From: a virus
Taxonomy: Duplodnaviria > Heunggongvirae > Uroviricota > Caudoviricetes
Direction: 5' to 3' (one strand)
DNA: 4,519 nt
Virus record (IMG/VR): IMGVR_UViG_2734482581_000010
The notes beneath the pieces were generated by a model that saw only the letters and a program-made list of their open reading frames with translations, made no database searches and was not told where the DNA came from. Every line of letters starts with the position of its first letter. Position 1 is the stretch's first letter. The position numbers were made by a program, and so were the translations under genes. This document shows positions 1 to 4,519 of this stretch, one piece after another.

Positions 1-60
1 CTCTCGTCTGGGGAATATCTCCCCGGCAGCCTTCAGGGAAAAATATCATCAGATGGCTGC

Positions 61-414
61 TTAAAAAAAGAACAAATGGTAGTGTCCGCTATTGCCAGTA
101 CACCTCAATTGCTCTGCGGCTTCGCTCAGAGCTGGCGTATGTTCCCGGCCTACTGATTCACACAGGTAATCAACGAAACCGGACACCAGTTTTCGTTCGC
201 GAGGCGTGATCGCCCCACCGACCGGAGTCCAGTAATCGAAACCCAGTTGCAGGAGTTTGAAAAAACGCTTGTGGAATGCGTAGTTACACACACGCTTAAA
301 GTCTGCGTGTATCCACTCACCTATTTTGATTTGATGCAGAAAATCGCAACTCTCCGGCGTCGCCGGGAGAAGTAATCCGGAAGAGGTTTGTTTGACCAGT
401 TGTATATGTGCCAT
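61..414 (-). CDS. hypothetical phage protein, about 117 aa from ATG 414..412 (the ORF track's longer version starts at an in-frame TTG at 456)
   Basis: Open frame on the minus strand. The ATG at 414..412 has GGAG about 8 nt upstream and lies 38 nt after the stop of the upstream gene. The TTG at 456 overlaps that stop but has no better ribosome-binding site. The C-terminus reads ...HLFFF from a T7 run (A7 on + at 63..69), so the 3' end may be affected by a homopolymer error. No recognisable family. Confidence 0.45.
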   Translation of the reverse strand: MAHIQLVKQTSSGLLLPATPESCDFLHQIKIGEWIHADFKRVCNYAFHKRFFKLLQLGFDYWTPVGGAITPRERKLVSGFVDYLCESVGREHTPALSEAAEQLRCTGNSGHYHLFFF

Positions 415-452
415 CGGCTTTCTCCGGTGGCACGGTGTTACACAGCAGGAGT

Positions 453-740
453 TCAATCCTGCTCAAGATTGTAGATGAGTTTATTCTTCAGCAAAAGCAG
501 AAAACCAGCCTTAAAACCAATCTCTTTCAAAACCCGTAATGATGTGACAAATTCGTCCTCACGCAAAATAAAACCGTCCGTCAGAAGTCCATTACAAAAA
601 TAAAATAACACAGCACCGCTCTTCCTTTGTTGAGATTGCAAACATCTAATGCGGCAATGGCTGACAATCGCTCCATTCTCAACGCGCACAGCATAGAGGC
701 CATTTTCACTAAAAATTTCACGCAATTCTTCGATTTTCAT
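453..740 (-). CDS. hypothetical small phage protein (95 aa)
   Basis: ATG at 740..738 preceded by GGAAGGA about 8 nt upstream; stop TGA at 455..453. Same strand and close spacing with the neighbouring gene. No recognisable motif. Confidence 0.5.
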   Translation of the reverse strand: MKIEELREIFSENGLYAVRVENGAIVSHCRIRCLQSQQRKSGAVLFYFCNGLLTDGFILREDEFVTSLRVLKEIGFKAGFLLLLKNKLIYNLEQD

Positions 741-861
741 CTTCAGAATCCTTCCAGATAAATAGCTCTCCCCTGTTCGGGGTCCATCCCTCTTCTCCCT
801 GCGCGCTACTTAAGTGAGTCGATTCTATCTGCGAAGGTGCGCGAATCAAATTCACCGGAAA

Positions 862-914
862 TAAACAACAAAAAACCCGCCGAAACGCTGAGAGATCACA
901 GCGATGGGCGGGTT
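862..914 (-). terminator. intrinsic terminator at the 3' end of the hok-family transcript
   Basis: Minus-strand RNA reads AACCCGCC-(inner CGCUG/CAGCG stem)-GGCGGGUU followed directly by UUUUUUGUUGUUU: a GC-rich stem-loop plus U-tract. It lies about 75 nt downstream of the hok stop. Confidence 0.55.
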
Positions 915-989
915 AAGTGCGGGTGCGTTGAGGATGCCTGACACATCAGAGGTGGGCGGGGATGGGATCAGCTCCCCGCCCGGTCACTC

Positions 990-1145
990 TTACTTCCTGG
1001 ATTCGTAGTCTACGAAGACAGCGACCTCCGTCTGGCCGGTTCGGATTCGTACCTCACAGAGGTCTTTCCTCGTTACCAGTGCCGTCACTATGACGGTTAA
1101 ACAGATGACGATCAGGGCGATTAACATCGCCTTTTGCTGCTTCAT
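990..1145 (-). CDS. hok: Hok/Gef-family type I toxin (51 aa, HokC/HokD-like small membrane toxin)
   Basis: Translation MKQQKAMLIALIVICLTVIVTALVTRKDLCEVRIRTGQTEVAVFVDYESRK has the single hydrophobic helix and the conserved LCE-R-R-G--EVA-F--YE core that I recall from Gef/RelF/Hok proteins. ATG at 1145..1143 is preceded by AAGGAG with a 9-nt spacer. Confidence 0.85.
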   Translation of the reverse strand: MKQQKAMLIALIVICLTVIVTALVTRKDLCEVRIRTGQTEVAVFVDYESRK

Positions 1146-1202
1146 AGCCTGCTTCTCCTTGCCTTTCGGCATGTAAGAGGCTAACCTACATGTGCAAAGC
1201 AT
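990..1202 (-). CDS. mok: Mok-like overlapping leader ORF (70 aa, in-frame N-terminal extension of hok)
   Basis: ATG at 1202..1200 with GAGG about 8 nt upstream. The N-terminal extension MLCTCRLASYMPKGKEKQA resembles the in-frame Mok leader of chromosomal hokC-type loci as I recall it. Whether it is translated is an inference. Confidence 0.5.
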   Translation of the reverse strand: MLCTCRLASYMPKGKEKQAMKQQKAMLIALIVICLTVIVTALVTRKDLCEVRIRTGQTEVAVFVDYESRK

Positions 1203-1258
1203 GAAATTGGCCTCAGATTAATGTTAAGCGTCTTGCCGGACGCGTAATGTTAACTGGG
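1194..1258 (+). ncRNA. sok: putative Sok-like antisense RNA (position approximate)
   Basis: Hok-family loci carry a short antisense RNA across the mok translation-initiation region. On the + strand there is a weak promoter-like pair, TTGCCT (1159..1164) and TAACCT (1182..1187) with 17-nt spacing, pointing into the mok start, and an imperfect hairpin TTAAGCGTC/GACGCGTAA at 1223..1246. The ends are not determined from sequence. Confidence 0.25.
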
Positions 1259-1321
1259 GCTTTTCTCTATCTGCCTTTTGGTGTTCATGCCTGAAGCAGA
1301 TAGCCTCAAGCACCCGCAGTC

Positions 1322-1351
1322 ATTCTACTTACCTCGCCAATATGAAATCAA
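1322..1351 (-). promoter_or_regulatory. putative sigma70 promoter of the mok/hok mRNA
   Basis: On the minus strand: -35 TTGATT (1351..1346), 18-nt spacer, -10 TAGAAT (1327..1322). The predicted start near 1315 lies just upstream of the sequence GCUUGAGGCU, which matches my recollection of the hok mRNA 5' end. Confidence 0.35.
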
Positions 1352-1372
1352 TCAGAAAGGTGCCCCATAAAA

Positions 1373-2059
1373 TCACTCCTTCTCTTCTTTACCGTAGTGG
1401 AGTTGACCAATTTTGATAAGAGGGCGTCCCTGAGATTTGCGGTGTAGATTGGTATCGCGCAGAGAATACACACAGCCACAATATTCCTGCTGATAGAATT
1501 TTTCGCGCTTGCTGATTTCAATCATACGGGACGAGCCGCCCTGCTTGCGCCAGTTATAATCCCAGTACACCATGCCCGGATAATGCGCGACGGCTCGCCG
1601 CCCACAGTCGTTAACCTGCTGCATATTTTTCCAGCGTGAAATGCCCAGTGAACTGCTGATCACACTGAAACCATTTTCAGCGGCGTACAGCGCTGTCCGC
1701 TCAAAACGCATGTCAAAACACATGGTGCAACGGATCCCTCGTTCGGGCTCCCATTCCATTCCTTTGGCTCGTTCAAACCAGTTGTCTGTGTCGTAATCAG
1801 CATCAATAAACGGCACGCCGTGTTGTTCAGCAAAGCGAATATTCTCATCCTTACGAATTAAATACTCTTTCTGAGGATGAATGTTCGGGTTGTAGAAAAA
1901 GATGGTGTAGTCGATTCCCGAGGCCTGAAGCGCCTCCATCACCTCACCGGAACATGGAGCACAGCAAGAGTGCAGTAGTAGTTTGTTTGCCCCGTTTGGG
2001 AGCTCCAATTTGGGCCGTTTGAAATCAGCAACTGTCATAAATATGTTTATTGGGGTCAT
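1373..2059 (-). CDS. queH: QueH-type epoxyqueuosine reductase homolog (DUF208 family)
   Basis: 228-aa ORF with the N-terminal [10 protein letters not shown] motif, internal CTMC and C-terminal QEYCGC motifs characteristic of DUF208/QueH. No clear Shine-Dalgarno before ATG 2059 or the in-frame ATG at 2038, so the start is uncertain. Confidence 0.8.
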
Positions 2060-2206
2060 AAAAATATCAAAGAGTGTAGCATTAGAACGGGGCTATCGGA
2101 AACAGATGTGTGACTGCTCCCCGCCCTTTCGGGTGGTCTCCTGATGATTTGAGGGTGCAGAAATCCCTCCGGTTAAGGATTAAATTTTTAACAGTGCTAA
2201 ATTTAA

Positions 2207-2563
2207 TTATTCAGTTCTGGATTTTGTCGCCCTGCGTATCCGCGCTTTCGCGTTACGCTCAATCTGTATCAGCTTTTCTATATTTCTCCGCCTTTCCTGT
2301 TCCTCCTGGCGCAATAGCCTTACATCATCTGCCAGTCTGGTTTCTCTTTTTGCCACAGAGAGCATCCAGTCAAACGGCTCCACAACCGCACCGCAGATTT
2401 TACAGCGGACCTGACGCTCTTTTTCGTCAACCCGTACAGAGGCGTGATGGCAATATGGTCTTTCCGATGGCTCATAAAGAAAATTAACCTGATTACGAGG
2501 GTCATCCTCTTTTACCGGAAATAAAACGATATTGCTTAACTCATCTTCTGGTTTTATTTCCAT
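2207..2563 (-). CDS. hypothetical protein with Cys/His cluster and basic coiled-coil-like C-terminus (119 aa; alternative ATG at 2620 gives 137 aa)
   Basis: ATG at 2563..2561 is preceded by AAGGAGAGGAG. Translation has YCHH...(11)...CKIC, a possible zinc-binding site, followed by a charged, heptad-like segment RLLRQEEQERRRNIEKLIQIERNAKARIRR. The upstream ATG at 2620 abuts the stop of the preceding gene and has a poorer ribosome-binding site. Confidence 0.55.
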   Translation of the reverse strand: MEIKPEDELSNIVLFPVKEDDPRNQVNFLYEPSERPYCHHASVRVDEKERQVRCKICGAVVEPFDWMLSVAKRETRLADDVRLLRQEEQERRRNIEKLIQIERNAKARIRRATKSRTE

Positions 2564-2620
2564 GCTCCTCTCCTTTGATGCGAATGCCAGCGGTAATTGA
2601 AGCCTGATAGCTAATTTCAT

Positions 2621-3043
2621 TCACAGTATCGCCTCCTGAAAATTACCCTGATAGAAAGCCAGTACACGCTGCATAGCTTCGCTCTTCCGGCACTCGCGAC
2701 AGATTATATTCAGGCGCCTGTCGTAGCGGCGTATTTCTCCGTCAGGTAATGACCAGATAAGGTCCGGATCAACAACAACCGGTTTCCTCACCTTTACTCT
2801 CGAGAGTTTTTTGCGGGCGCTTTGCCAGTCCTTGCGAGCCTGTTCAGACGGGAATAAGCCGTAGCCAGAATTATATACATCACCACTTGCGACCAGTTCT
2901 ATGCATAAGCGACCGACAGACGCACGACTGATACCTGTTTCATCTGACAACTGCCGAATCGTGACCCGACCGTCCTGATGCACGAGTTCCACAATTCGCG
3001 TCTTCAGTTCTTCCCGCTGTTCGGGAGTAAAAGGTTTCGCCAT
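2621..3043 (-). CDS. hypothetical protein with N-terminal helix-turn-helix-like segment (140 aa)
   Basis: ATG at 3043..3041 with AGGAGG 4 nt upstream, 14 nt after the DnaC-like stop. The segment VTIRQLSDETGISRASVGRLCIEL looks like an HTH recognition unit. Family not recognised. Confidence 0.6.
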   Translation of the reverse strand: MAKPFTPEQREELKTRIVELVHQDGRVTIRQLSDETGISRASVGRLCIELVASGDVYNSGYGLFPSEQARKDWQSARKKLSRVKVRKPVVVDPDLIWSLPDGEIRRYDRRLNIICRECRKSEAMQRVLAFYQGNFQEAIL

Positions 3044-3057
3044 AAATCCTCCTGAAA

Positions 3058-3711
3058 CTACTTAACAACCCTCGAATGGCTAACATTCGGACGCCAGCTC
3101 TCCCAGTTAAAATTCACCCAGCGCCCGNNNNNNNNNNNNNNNNNNNNNNNNNNNNNNNNNNNNNNNNNNNNNNNNNNNNNNNNNNNNNNNNNNNNNNNNN
3201 NNNNNNNNNNNNNNNNNNNNNNNNNNNNNNNNNNNNNNNNNNNNNNNNNNNNNNNNNNNNNNNNNNNNNNNNNNNNNNNNNNNNNNNNNNNNNNNNNNNN
3301 NNNNNNNNNNNNNNNNNNNNNNNNNNNNNNNNNNNNNNNNNNNNNNNNGATAGCTGCCGCTAAGTGATTCTTCCCGGTACCAGGTTTTCCGCTGAACGCA
3401 AAATTTGTACACCCGGTCATCAGTTCATCGGCGATGGATTTCGCCTGGCTTAACGCGTATCGCTGGCCGTCGTTCTGCACCTGGTAATTCGCAAACGAGC
3501 ATTTACGGTGCAACGGCTGGATGCCTGAGCGATTCAGAATTTTTTCCACCCGCAACTGGCGATTCAGGCGGTTGATCTCCTCGCTACGTTTCTGGCCTTC
3601 AGCAAGTTGCCACTCGCGCCACTCCGCTACCGTTCTGAATGGGGCGGTTACATGTGGCGGGGTCAGTCGGCGGATGCGTTCCAGAACGCCGCCTGTCGCA
3701 ATATTTTTCAT
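3058..3711 (-). CDS. dnaC: DnaC-like replicative helicase loader (AAA+), phage-type; CDS interrupted by the N gap
   Basis: The N-terminal 121 aa align with my recollection of E. coli DnaC (NRSGIQPLHRKCSFANY vs NRSGIRPLHQNCSFENY) and include Walker A FSGKPGTGKNHLAAAI. The C-terminal WVNFNWESWRPNV matches the DnaC tail WVIFNWDSYRSRV. The middle of the gene falls in the 221-N gap, so length and frame across it are not real. Confidence 0.85.
   Translation of the reverse strand: MKNIATGGVLERIRRLTPPHVTAPFRTVAEWREWQLAEGQKRSEEINRLNRQLRVEKILNRSGIQPLHRKCSFANYQVQNDGQRYALSQAKSIADELMTGCTNFAFSGKPGTGKNHLAAAIXXXXXXXXXXXXXXXXXXXXXXXXXXXXXXXXXXXXXXXXXXXXXXXXXXXXXXXXXXXXXXXXXXXXXXXXXXGRWVNFNWESWRPNVSHSRVVK
3128..3348. 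other. run of 221 N (assembly or scaffold gap, or masked region)
   Basis: Directly visible as n characters. It lies inside the DnaC-like gene. Confidence 0.98.
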
Positions 3712-4110
3712 GGTCCGTTACCCCCTGAAGCCTGGCGGGATCGCACTGTCCGGCAACGAGACGGTGTTAACCTGTCGGAGCAACGTCTCAGGCCGAACAC
3801 CTTTCGGCGCGAACAGGCCCTGGTATTCATTGGCGATGCTGTGTCGAATCACCTGCTCAGGTGTAAAACCCTGCTGACGGAATTTTTCCAGTTCCCGTAT
3901 CGCCCCGTTAGCGCCCTGCTCCGTTCGAATCGGTTTTCGCAATGCCTGTCTGAACCGGACCCACTCATGCCAGAGTGTTTCCGGCAACCAATCGGGCAGC
4001 TCAATAGCCTCCGGCTCGAATTTTTTAGACGCTCGTTTTTGGCGAGGGGGAGATCAGTATTTAGATCTTCCTCTTCCTCTTCCTCTGGTAACGCTTTTTG
4101 ATCCGTTTGT

Positions 4111-4129
4111 GTAACGCTGGCAGCGTTAC
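4111..4129. repeat. 19-bp dyad-symmetric site GTAACGCTG-G-CAGCGTTAC (iteron-like)
   Basis: Perfect 9-bp inverted arms around one central base, read directly from the sequence. A GTAACGC half-site also occurs at 4088..4094. Confidence 0.45.
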
Positions 4130-4318
4130 CTTTTCGTTTCAGTTCGCGTATTTTTGTTACTCGCTCGTTTGTAACCGCCCGTTTTTTTTAGAGCTTTTTC
4201 CGTTATGACGTTCAAAGTTAGGTAGAGAAAGCCCTCCGTCATTTTCGACCAGCCATCCAACCTGAATTAACGCATCAGCAAAACCAGACATAAAAGTGAT
4301 GCGATCTATTGCACTTTT

Positions 4319-4339
4319 TGTAACGCCGCGAGCGTTACA
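4319..4339. repeat. 21-bp dyad-symmetric site TGTAACGC-CGCGA-GCGTTACA (second copy of the same motif)
   Basis: Perfect 8-bp inverted arms with the same GTAACGC-N5-GCGTTAC core as 4111..4129. Related GTTAC-N10-GTAAC at 4156..4175 and a TTAACGC half-site at 4267..4273. Confidence 0.45.
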
Positions 4340-4394
4340 ATCTGCATTACCGTCTATCATTTGTTGATCCGCCCATGCCCAGAAGCGAATAACC

Positions 4395-4519
4395 TGAGGT
4401 AGCCTGAGTTTAACGGACACTCCTTCCTGAAATAGAATGGCATCAGAAGGAGCTAATAATGAGCAGAAAAACCCAACGTTACTCTAAAGAGTTCAAAGCC
4501 GAAGCTGTCAGAACGGTTC
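4395..4519 (+). mobile_element. left end of an IS3-family insertion sequence (partial; continues beyond the window)
   Basis: Terminal sequence TGAGGTAGCCTGAGTTTAACGGACAC starts with TGA and has GGACAC at positions 21 to 26, the same layout as the IS3 left inverted repeat as I recall it. It is followed 64 bp later by an OrfA-type start. Confidence 0.75.
4459..4519 (+). CDS. IS3-family transposase OrfA, N-terminal fragment (continues beyond the window)
   Basis: ATG at 4459 preceded by AGAAGGAG with a 6-nt spacer. Translation MSRKTQRYSKEFKAEAVRTV matches the N-terminus of IS3-family OrfA proteins; I recall this exact start from an IS600-like element but cannot verify it. Confidence 0.8.
   Translation, partial: MSRKTQRYSKEFKAEAVRTV

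Follow-up and report, generated by a model that had tools for sequence, protein, structure and literature searches.

Positions 1351 to 862 of the analyzed DNA (the whole 4,519-nt stretch is referred to here as the window) hold, on the minus strand, a 51-aa toxin reading frame nested in a longer in-frame ORF, preceded by a structured leader and followed by a GC-rich stem and a terminator, with a candidate antisense RNA gene on the plus strand across the start of the longer ORF. The elements located in this interval and the basis for placing each of them are as follows.

1322..1351, minus strand: promoter-like element (-35 TTGATT at 1351..1346, an 18-nt spacer, and -10 TAGAAT at 1327..1322).
1304..1315, minus strand: tac element at the 5' end of the hok mRNA (GGGUGCUUGAGG), placed by the start of the Rfam match, alignment with R1, and pairing with fbi in the full-length fold.
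1287..1297, minus strand: segment predicted to pair with tac in a metastable hairpin during transcription, from the fold of the first 45 nt, with the role described for R1 (PMC9841398).
1256..1262, minus strand: ucb, or anti-Shine-Dalgarno (SD) box (AAGCCCC), predicted to pair with the mok SD in the closed form or with tac in the open form, from the folds and the Rfam consensus structure.
990..1202, minus strand: mok-like ORF (70 aa) in frame with hok, from the ORF list (SD GAGG at 1214..1211, 8 nt before the AUG).
1177..1181, minus strand: dcb (GCCUC), predicted to pair with the mok SD in the open form, from alignment to helix 3 of the Rfam consensus and a constrained fold.
990..1145, minus strand: hok toxin ORF (51 aa; SD AAGGAG at 1160..1155), recognized by Pfam and PHROG.
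954..981, minus strand: GC-rich 9-bp stem-loop (981..973 paired with 962..954; fold, -20.9 kcal/mol), which aligns with the R1-type GC stem.
921..933, minus strand: fbi element, the 13-nt partner of tac (CCUCAA-C-GCACCC, with bulged C927), from folds and covariation.
862..914, minus strand: intrinsic terminator of the hok mRNA (stem 914..907 paired with 881..874, inner hairpin 903..899 paired with 890..886, and a U tract).
1194..1264, plus strand: candidate gene for the Sok antisense RNA (71 nt), mapped by alignment from the ends of K-12 sokC (1194 and 1270).
1159..1187, plus strand: predicted Sok promoter (-35 TTGCCT at 1159..1164, a 17-nt spacer, and -10 TAACCT at 1182..1187, with a G1194 start 7 nt downstream).

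From its sequence, the interval is very probably a complete type I toxin-antitoxin locus of the hok/sok type, belonging to the hokD/hokW clade and situated in a lambdoid prophage remnant. A sequence-only reading had proposed the full hok-family architecture for this interval, and all of the features that it listed were found where it had placed them. The hok ORF (1145..990) was matched by the ORF list and by Pfam and PHROG, the in-frame mok-like ORF from the ATG at 1202 by the ORF list, the 9-bp GC stem just past the stop codon by its predicted fold, and the intrinsic terminator by the folds together with comparison with relatives.

The prophage segment is short and is bounded by insertion sequences. 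Positions 1 to 107 of the window are the end, and positions 4395 to 4519 the start, of IS600, in the same orientation, so that the hok-bearing piece (108..4394; 4.3 kb) is bracketed by IS600; the DUF1367 gene is truncated. No lysis or morphogenesis genes were detected in the window. In FDAARGOS_943, the nearest complete genome, this DNA runs on in both directions within an IS-ridden lambdoid prophage with many pseudogenes.

The 51-aa product matched Pfam PF01848 (HOK_GEF) over the entire model (positions 1 to 42 of 42; E = 4.3e-23; 81 bits versus a cutoff of 22) and PHROG 251, "MokW-like host killing" (E = 1.3e-32), whereas the NCBIfam Hok models gave matches only below their curated cutoffs, which counts against the assignment. 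It was 98% identical to HokW (VT2-Sakai/Sp5), 90% to K-12 HokD, 78% to HokC, and 45% to R1 Hok. The check for Hok-family similarity that the earlier reading had suggested thus came out positive by Pfam, by PHROG, and by alignment to HokD and HokC. The sole difference from HokW among the 51 residues is R50 (E50 in HokW); HokW of Sakai prophage 5 is toxic and is neutralized by sokW, and hokW-sokW is an experimentally demonstrated type I toxin-antitoxin pair (PMC8621323).

The reading frame of mok relative to hok is the usual one. In K-12, mokC and hokC are annotated with a common frame and a common stop codon, and mok is also in frame with hok in the R1-type sequence; the in-frame mok found here is therefore not unusual. 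Sequence identity at the mok start (0.68) was lower than in the flanking leader segments (0.76 to 0.81) and in the hok coding sequence (0.95 to 1.0), so a "hypervariable patch" at the mok start is a real but modest effect.

The leader supported the same family assignment independently of the protein. The interval 1315..1140 (minus strand) matched Rfam RF01794 end to end (model positions 1 to 157 of 157; 117 bits versus a gathering score of 59; E = 3.9e-27), on the strand of the hok mRNA and from +1 to the hok AUG. The likely transcription start is near 1315, 7 nt past the -10 hexamer, as the Rfam model begins at 1315 and the +1 of the R1-type locus aligns to 1314.

Upstream of this putative start, the promoter-like element named in the sequence-only reading is present: TTGATT-18-TAGAAT matches 9 of 12 consensus positions, and a promoter scan returned 2 sites in the region versus 0.5 expected. 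The -35 hexamer that had been named, however, is not homologous to that of the relatives, which have TTGGCG-17-TAGAAT with a conserved -10. Compared with all relatives examined, 10 nt of the spacer are deleted in the window, leaving TTGGCG only 7 nt from the -10. Because the deletion brought the upstream TTGATT closer, this nonhomologous hexamer may act as a substitute -35 at 18-nt spacing; the deletion makes the strength of the hok promoter uncertain. The 10-nt deletion is shared with Escherichia coli ECMA0423 and Shigella flexneri SFBU1023, the loci of which are 99.8% identical to that of the window.

The earlier reading had also pointed out that the start of the leader (1304..1320) is nearly the reverse complement of a 3' element (916..933). 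The complementarity is exactly as described (16 of 17 positions paired, with bulged C927), but the effective 5'/3' helix would be 12 bp (1315..1304 with 933..921) rather than 16 bp, because the transcript probably begins at about 1315. In the minus-strand RNA folding that had been suggested as a check, the 5'/3' pairing was part of the minimum-energy fold of 1320..862 (-196 kcal/mol; z = -8.6 versus shuffles), as helices 1318..1310 with 926..918 (9 bp) and 1309..1304 with 933..928 (6 bp). The duplex between the 12-nt 5' end and the 3' untranslated region (UTR) had an energy of -21.1 kcal/mol, which was matched by 4 of 2,000 dinucleotide shuffles of the 3' UTR, and nowhere in the window, on either strand, was there a better nontrivial partner for the 5' end than fbi.

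We examined this pairing across the family by scanning GTDB species genomes with a Hok alignment, which returned 80 loci. In 68 cases a leader motif preceded a Hok-like ORF (66 loci after spurious second-motif hits were removed), and the best partner of the 5' end lay 45 to 60 nt after the stop codon in most of these 66 to 68 loci. The 66 loci yielded 31 distinct tac/fbi types with compensatory changes at two positions (4 and 12). Position 4 was U-A in 9 types, C-G in 19, U-G in 2, and mismatched in 1; position 12 was G-C in 16 types and A-U in 7; at position 11, there was one A-U among 26 G-C pairs. MAFFT failed to hold the bulged and unbulged fbi types in one register; thus, the formal count covers the outer six pairs only, and the inner six were counted from duplex predictions. 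In the outer six pairs, 93.5% of the cells paired (versus 27 to 63% with the partner slid), and no shuffle attained the observed percentage. The fbi segments were picked as the best duplex partners, which biases these figures toward pairing, but the position and the core of fbi are alignable. The bulged nucleotide varied freely (C, U, or A), and the bases 3' of fbi, which could pair with sequence upstream of 1315, were not conserved. Both observations agree with initiation near 1315 and with a helix that is effectively 12 bp long.

An alternative is that the complementarity is a chance match without any role; in its favor, the 3' UTR is GC rich, and a few shuffles attained the observed energy. 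We regard this as exceedingly improbable and as effectively refuted by the covariation, since the pairing is kept at the same distance from the stop codon, with compensatory changes, in Escherichia, Photorhabdus, Pantoea, Erwinia, Kluyvera, and IncF plasmids; moreover, tac/fbi pairing has been shown experimentally for R1 (PMC9841398). Interpretation of the 5'/3' complementarity as the tac/fbi fold-back is supported by folding, by family covariation, and by the R1-type control described below.

In the R1 model, the nascent mRNA has a metastable 5' hairpin, the complete mRNA is closed by tac/fbi with ucb over the mok SD, slow 3' trimming proceeds to the terminal stem, and tac then pairs with ucb (PMC9841398). 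Counterparts of the paired states were found among the predicted folds. The first 45 nt folded into an 11-bp hairpin (1313..1303 with 1297..1287), and the first 70 nt folded into a tac/ucb stem (1315..1313 with 1258..1256 and 1311..1308 with 1262..1259) that has the same pairs as the Rfam consensus structure. In the full-length fold, ucb GCC (1260..1258) paired with mok SD GGC (1212..1210), and the mok AUG region paired with 946..934. Forcing the open (tac/ucb) state cost 13 to 19 kcal/mol in the full-length mRNA and 2 to 3 kcal/mol after truncation at 947, compared with 11.6 (full length) and 3.2 kcal/mol (truncated) for the R1-type control. The minimum-energy fold of the truncated mRNA retained the closed/metastable form and did not adopt the open one. 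We rejected this as counterevidence to the switch and consider it a limit of the method, because the R1-type control behaved in the same way.

The GC stem at 954..981 is presumably the 3'-terminal protective stem of the processed hok mRNA and a stop point for 3' exonucleases; in R1, mutations breaking the corresponding stem abolish the truncated mRNA (PMC9841398). The terminator consists of an 8-bp GC-rich stem around a 5-bp hairpin, followed by UUUUUUGUUGUUU (-22.8 kcal/mol). A simple terminator scan made no call at 862..914; the scanner has a loop limit of 8 nt, and the loop here is longer. Relatives have AACCCGC-TTCG-GCGGGTT-T(n) at the same place, whereas the loop in the window carries a 23-nt insertion that forms its own hairpin (-22.8 versus -11.8 kcal/mol). 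Homology to all but two genomes ends at 908.

A Sok-like RNA had been expected on the plus strand over the mok start but had not been placed, and the alignment with K-12 sokC now provides a candidate gene at 1194..1264. The predicted RNA has a free 9-nt 5' tail, a long hairpin, and a GGGGCUUUU 3' end (-30.2 kcal/mol; z = -4.8), and its sequence is complementary to ucb, to the SD and AUG of mok, and to the two codons that follow. Its predicted length is that reported for sokW (71 nt) (PMC8621323). K-12 sokC is annotated as a 59-nt noncoding RNA with a 9-nt overlap with the mokC start. The predicted Sok hairpin is 16 to 18 nt longer than in hokC, R1, and the Rfam consensus, a feature common to the hokD/hokW clade except the PPompW phage. 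The putative Sok promoter was placed by homology to sokC, sokW, and R1: it occupies the position of the R1-type TTGCGC/TATCCT, and both of its hexamers are identical in VT2-Sakai sokW. It matches 7 of 12 consensus positions and was below the threshold of the simple promoter scan.

Among known systems, the closest is hokW-sokW of Sakai prophage 5, VT2-Sakai, and 933W-type Stx phages (DNA 91% identical over the 428 nt that run from shortly before the -10 to fbi). The two have in common the in-frame mok, the 18-nt-longer sokT/Sok hairpin, the Sok promoter hexamers, and the predicted Sok length. They differ at several positions of the mok-start sequence encoding the Sok 5' tail (GCAAAGCAUG here versus GUUCAGCAUG), and the upstream promoter region and the terminator of hokW-sokW are unrelated to those of the window. 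The locations also differ: hokW is found close to the right-hand end of an inducible Stx phage, whereas the window locus has queH on one side and the nin-region genes of a prophage remnant on the other.

This setting bears on whether the locus might assist prophage lysis, as reported for hokW-sokW, with induction halting the supply of Sok, Hok being made, and lysis and phage release occurring earlier. The likeness of the two loci in protein and DNA (50 of 51 residues and 91% identity) favors such a role, as does the response of hokW-sokW to mitomycin C, in which sokW RNA is lost, HokW is made in a RecA-dependent manner, and twice as many phage are released (PMC8621323). In a 4.3-kb remnant with no lysis or morphogenesis genes in the window, however, there would be nothing to release, and we consider this role improbable here.

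K-12 hokD (relF; Qin prophage) is 90% identical at the DNA level from 1159 to 908 of the window, an interval that takes in the toxin ORF with its SD, the GC stem, and fbi and reaches into the terminator. Both loci are in the nin region of a lambdoid prophage, adjoining rem/DUF1367-type genes. K-12 hokD lacks the promoter, tac, ucb, sokT, the mok start, and the Sok -10, with relBE in their place; the window has all of them. The window locus is accordingly not of the K-12 hokD type, in which the ORF is directly 3' of relBE without a leader, mok, or sok, as it has a full leader with queH upstream. The coding sequence is 100% identical in RefSeq to one labeled hokD by PGAP; because homology to K-12 hokD begins only at 1159, just before the hok SD, this name reflects protein similarity only. 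Judged by sequence, the complete form is that of the window, K-12 hokD being a beheaded one.

K-12 hokC/mokC/sokC (gef) has 75% DNA identity over 357 nt, with the same order of elements, an in-frame mok, and an annotated Sok RNA. It lacks the 18-nt hairpin extension, which gives the shorter sokC, and has IS186 in the GC stem, parting it from fbi. The archetype, hok/sok of plasmid R1 (IncFII), follows the same scheme of a metastable hairpin, tac/fbi, ucb/SD, and tac/ucb pairings, and a terminal GC stem (PMC9841398). It also has the invariant GCUUGAGGC motif at the 5' end, and its open/closed energetics parallel those of the window. The R1 system differs in the divergence of its Hok, in being plasmid borne rather than in a prophage, and in its tac/fbi (GGCGCUU/AAGCGCC), which has no bulge, versus GGGUGCUUGAGG/CCUCAA-C-GCACCC in the window.

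Related DNA is widespread. It was present in 4,713 of 5,426 complete E. coli genomes (median, two places per genome), in 110 phage records (including VT2-Sakai, EDL933-Stx, and Rac-SA53), and in plasmids, both P1-like and others. A 533-base stretch around the locus was 100% identical in two RefSeq E. coli genomes, and the allele was kept at 99.8 to 100% identity in at least four genomes. The analysis shows the sequence elements, the predicted folds, the tac/fbi covariation, and the homology to experimentally studied loci, and the independent tests of the toxin, the leader, the folding, and the covariation are concordant, which supports the interpretation as a complete hok/sok-type locus. It is an ordinary, apparently intact hok/sok copy and an already known kind of locus.

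Intact anatomy might nevertheless conceal a decaying, silent copy in which hok is no longer transcribed, owing to the promoter deletion or to other changes specific to the lineage. The 10-nt deletion removes the -35/-10 spacing of the relatives, the prophage has been cut down to a 4.3-kb fragment by IS600 on both sides, and the corresponding prophage of the nearest complete genome is full of IS elements and pseudogenes. Several K-12 hok loci have been inactivated by other routes, hokD having lost its whole leader and hokC having IS186 in its 3' stem. We nonetheless think it unlikely that this copy is silent. The two ORFs (hok and mok) and their ribosome-binding sites are intact, as are tac, ucb, fbi, the GC stem, and the hexamers of the putative Sok promoter; the substitute -35 at 18-nt spacing passes the promoter scan; and at least four genomes carry the allele nearly or fully unchanged.

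Most likely, the module works as in R1, and it is along these lines that we infer the transcription, processing, toxicity, and biological role of the locus. By homology with R1 hok/sok, a weak promoter would direct synthesis of a minus-strand mRNA of about 450 nt from about 1315, the 5' end of which would be kept in the metastable hairpin during synthesis. In the finished mRNA, tac (1315..1304) would pair with fbi (933..921), ucb would cover the mok ribosome-binding site, and the region around the mok start would be paired with 946..934. The finished mRNA would then be neither translated nor bound by Sok, because the closed tac/fbi fold hides the ribosome-binding site and the start region of mok. 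Slow exonucleolytic trimming from the 3' end would take off the terminator and fbi and halt at the GC stem (981..954), after which tac would be free to pair with ucb, exposing the mok ribosome-binding site. Translation of the upstream, in-frame mok would drive that of the 51-aa membrane toxin Hok. Sok (1194..1264; plus strand), which would be unstable and strongly expressed, would pair with the processed mRNA over the mok SD and AUG, and the duplex would be degraded. Once Sok synthesis stops, Hok would be made and the cell damaged or killed.

Two consequences of such a module had been raised in the earlier reading, stabilization of the element and abortive infection, and both are plausible. 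Under the first, loss of the segment would remove the short-lived Sok while the stable hok mRNA persists, and the cells would die. Plasmid hok/sok is established to act in this way (PMC9841398; PMC8621323), and recombination between the two same-orientation IS600 copies that flank the segment is one route by which it could be lost. The sole experiment on the closest relative, hokW-sokW, indicates another role, and we therefore hold addiction as a possibility only tentatively. Under the second, a lytic phage would shut off host transcription, deplete Sok, and so trigger Hok. With R1 hok/sok on a high-copy-number plasmid, T4 plating fell by 42% and plaques were smaller by about 85% (cited in PMC8621323), but this effect was weak and was seen only at high copy number, which makes a defensive role of the window locus doubtful.

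A more specific proposal within the R1-type mechanism is that this allele is an active addiction module holding the 4.3-kb remnant in place. Deletion between the IS600 copies would lose Sok, the stable hok mRNA would kill the cell, and the level and processing rate of the hok mRNA would have been retuned for single-copy chromosomal life by the lineage-specific promoter deletion together with the enlarged terminator. We consider this combination speculative and quite improbable.

As a discovery the locus adds little, since hok/sok is among the best-studied type I toxin-antitoxin systems, most E. coli genomes have a member of the clade, and the closest relative has been characterized experimentally. 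Its value is in part one of annotation: public records mark only the 51-aa coding sequence as hokD and leave mok, Sok, tac, fbi, and the processing stem unmarked, though all are present. Furthermore, this allele, with its promoter deletion, terminator insertion, and flanking IS600 copies, could offer a modest natural experiment on the tuning of hok expression in chromosomal remnants.

The hok/sok locus, a type I toxin-antitoxin locus, lies on a 4.3-kb prophage piece that is bracketed by two direct copies of IS600, since parts of this element occur in the same orientation at both ends of the window and are each 100% identical to both IS600 copies of comparison locus L001. The features flanking hok/sok were as follows.

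1..107, same orientation as the copy at 4395..4519: IS600 3' end
822..849, minus strand: second promoter-like element (TTGATT-16-TAGAAT), just downstream of the hok terminator
1373..2059, minus strand: QueH (epoxyqueuosine reductase) gene (Pfam E=2e-65)
3058..3711, minus strand: ydaV/DnaC-like replication gene, its middle masked by an N run at 3128..3348
4395..4519, same orientation as the copy at 1..107: IS600 5' start

The left IS600 copy cuts off a DUF1367 gene (61..456), for which the Pfam match covers model positions 1 to 102 of 198 only. The QueH gene, a tRNA-modification gene, is prophage cargo. It is located directly upstream of hok, and the same order was observed in E. coli OSUCMP42 (L013). 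The second promoter-like element precedes a 95-aa ORF (740..453; PHROG 340, unknown function).

In the alignment of related hok loci (A1), the hok promoter of all relatives examined was TTGGCG-17-TAGAAT, versus which the window has a 10-nt deletion in the spacer (window 1328..1345; A1 columns 40 to 70), so that an upstream TTGATT occupies the -35 position with 18-nt spacing. This deletion is common to the window, E. coli ECMA0423 (L014), and S. flexneri SFBU1023 (L015). In the relatives, the terminator is a simple hairpin (7-bp stem, TTCG loop), whereas that of the window has a loop enlarged by a 23-nt insertion (882..906) with its own 5-bp hairpin. Homology of the window to almost all other genomes stops at 908.

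At A1 columns 455 to 475, an IS186/IS421 end (CATAAGCGCTAACTT) was found inside the GC-rich stem that follows the hok stop codon, at the same point in two independent hok loci (K-12 hokC [L002] and plasmid pPK8217 [L007]), which suggests that this stem is an insertion hotspot for the IS186/IS421 family.

Hok loci almost identical to E. coli or IncF types were also present in assemblies recorded as Veillonella, Acinetobacter, Xanthomonas, Ferruginibacter, Streptomyces, and Oscillibacter (L017, L030, L035, and L073 to L075); contamination with enterobacterial contigs is the most likely explanation.

The start codon of mok, the in-frame ORF upstream of hok, is ATA instead of ATG in E. coli PK-F-10132 (L011; A1 columns 208 to 210), and mok-dependent Hok translation may therefore be lost in this locus.

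Co-resident hok paralogues within one genome (L014/L019/L020 and L015/L022/L024) differed mostly around the mok start (window 1194..1210), where clade identity was 0.68, compared with 0.95 to 1.0 in the hok coding sequence. This region encodes the 5' recognition tail of the antisense RNA Sok, with variants such as GCAAAGCAUG, GUUCAGCAUG, and GUCUGGCAUG among co-resident paralogues. Such divergence is consistent with the avoidance of cross-talk.
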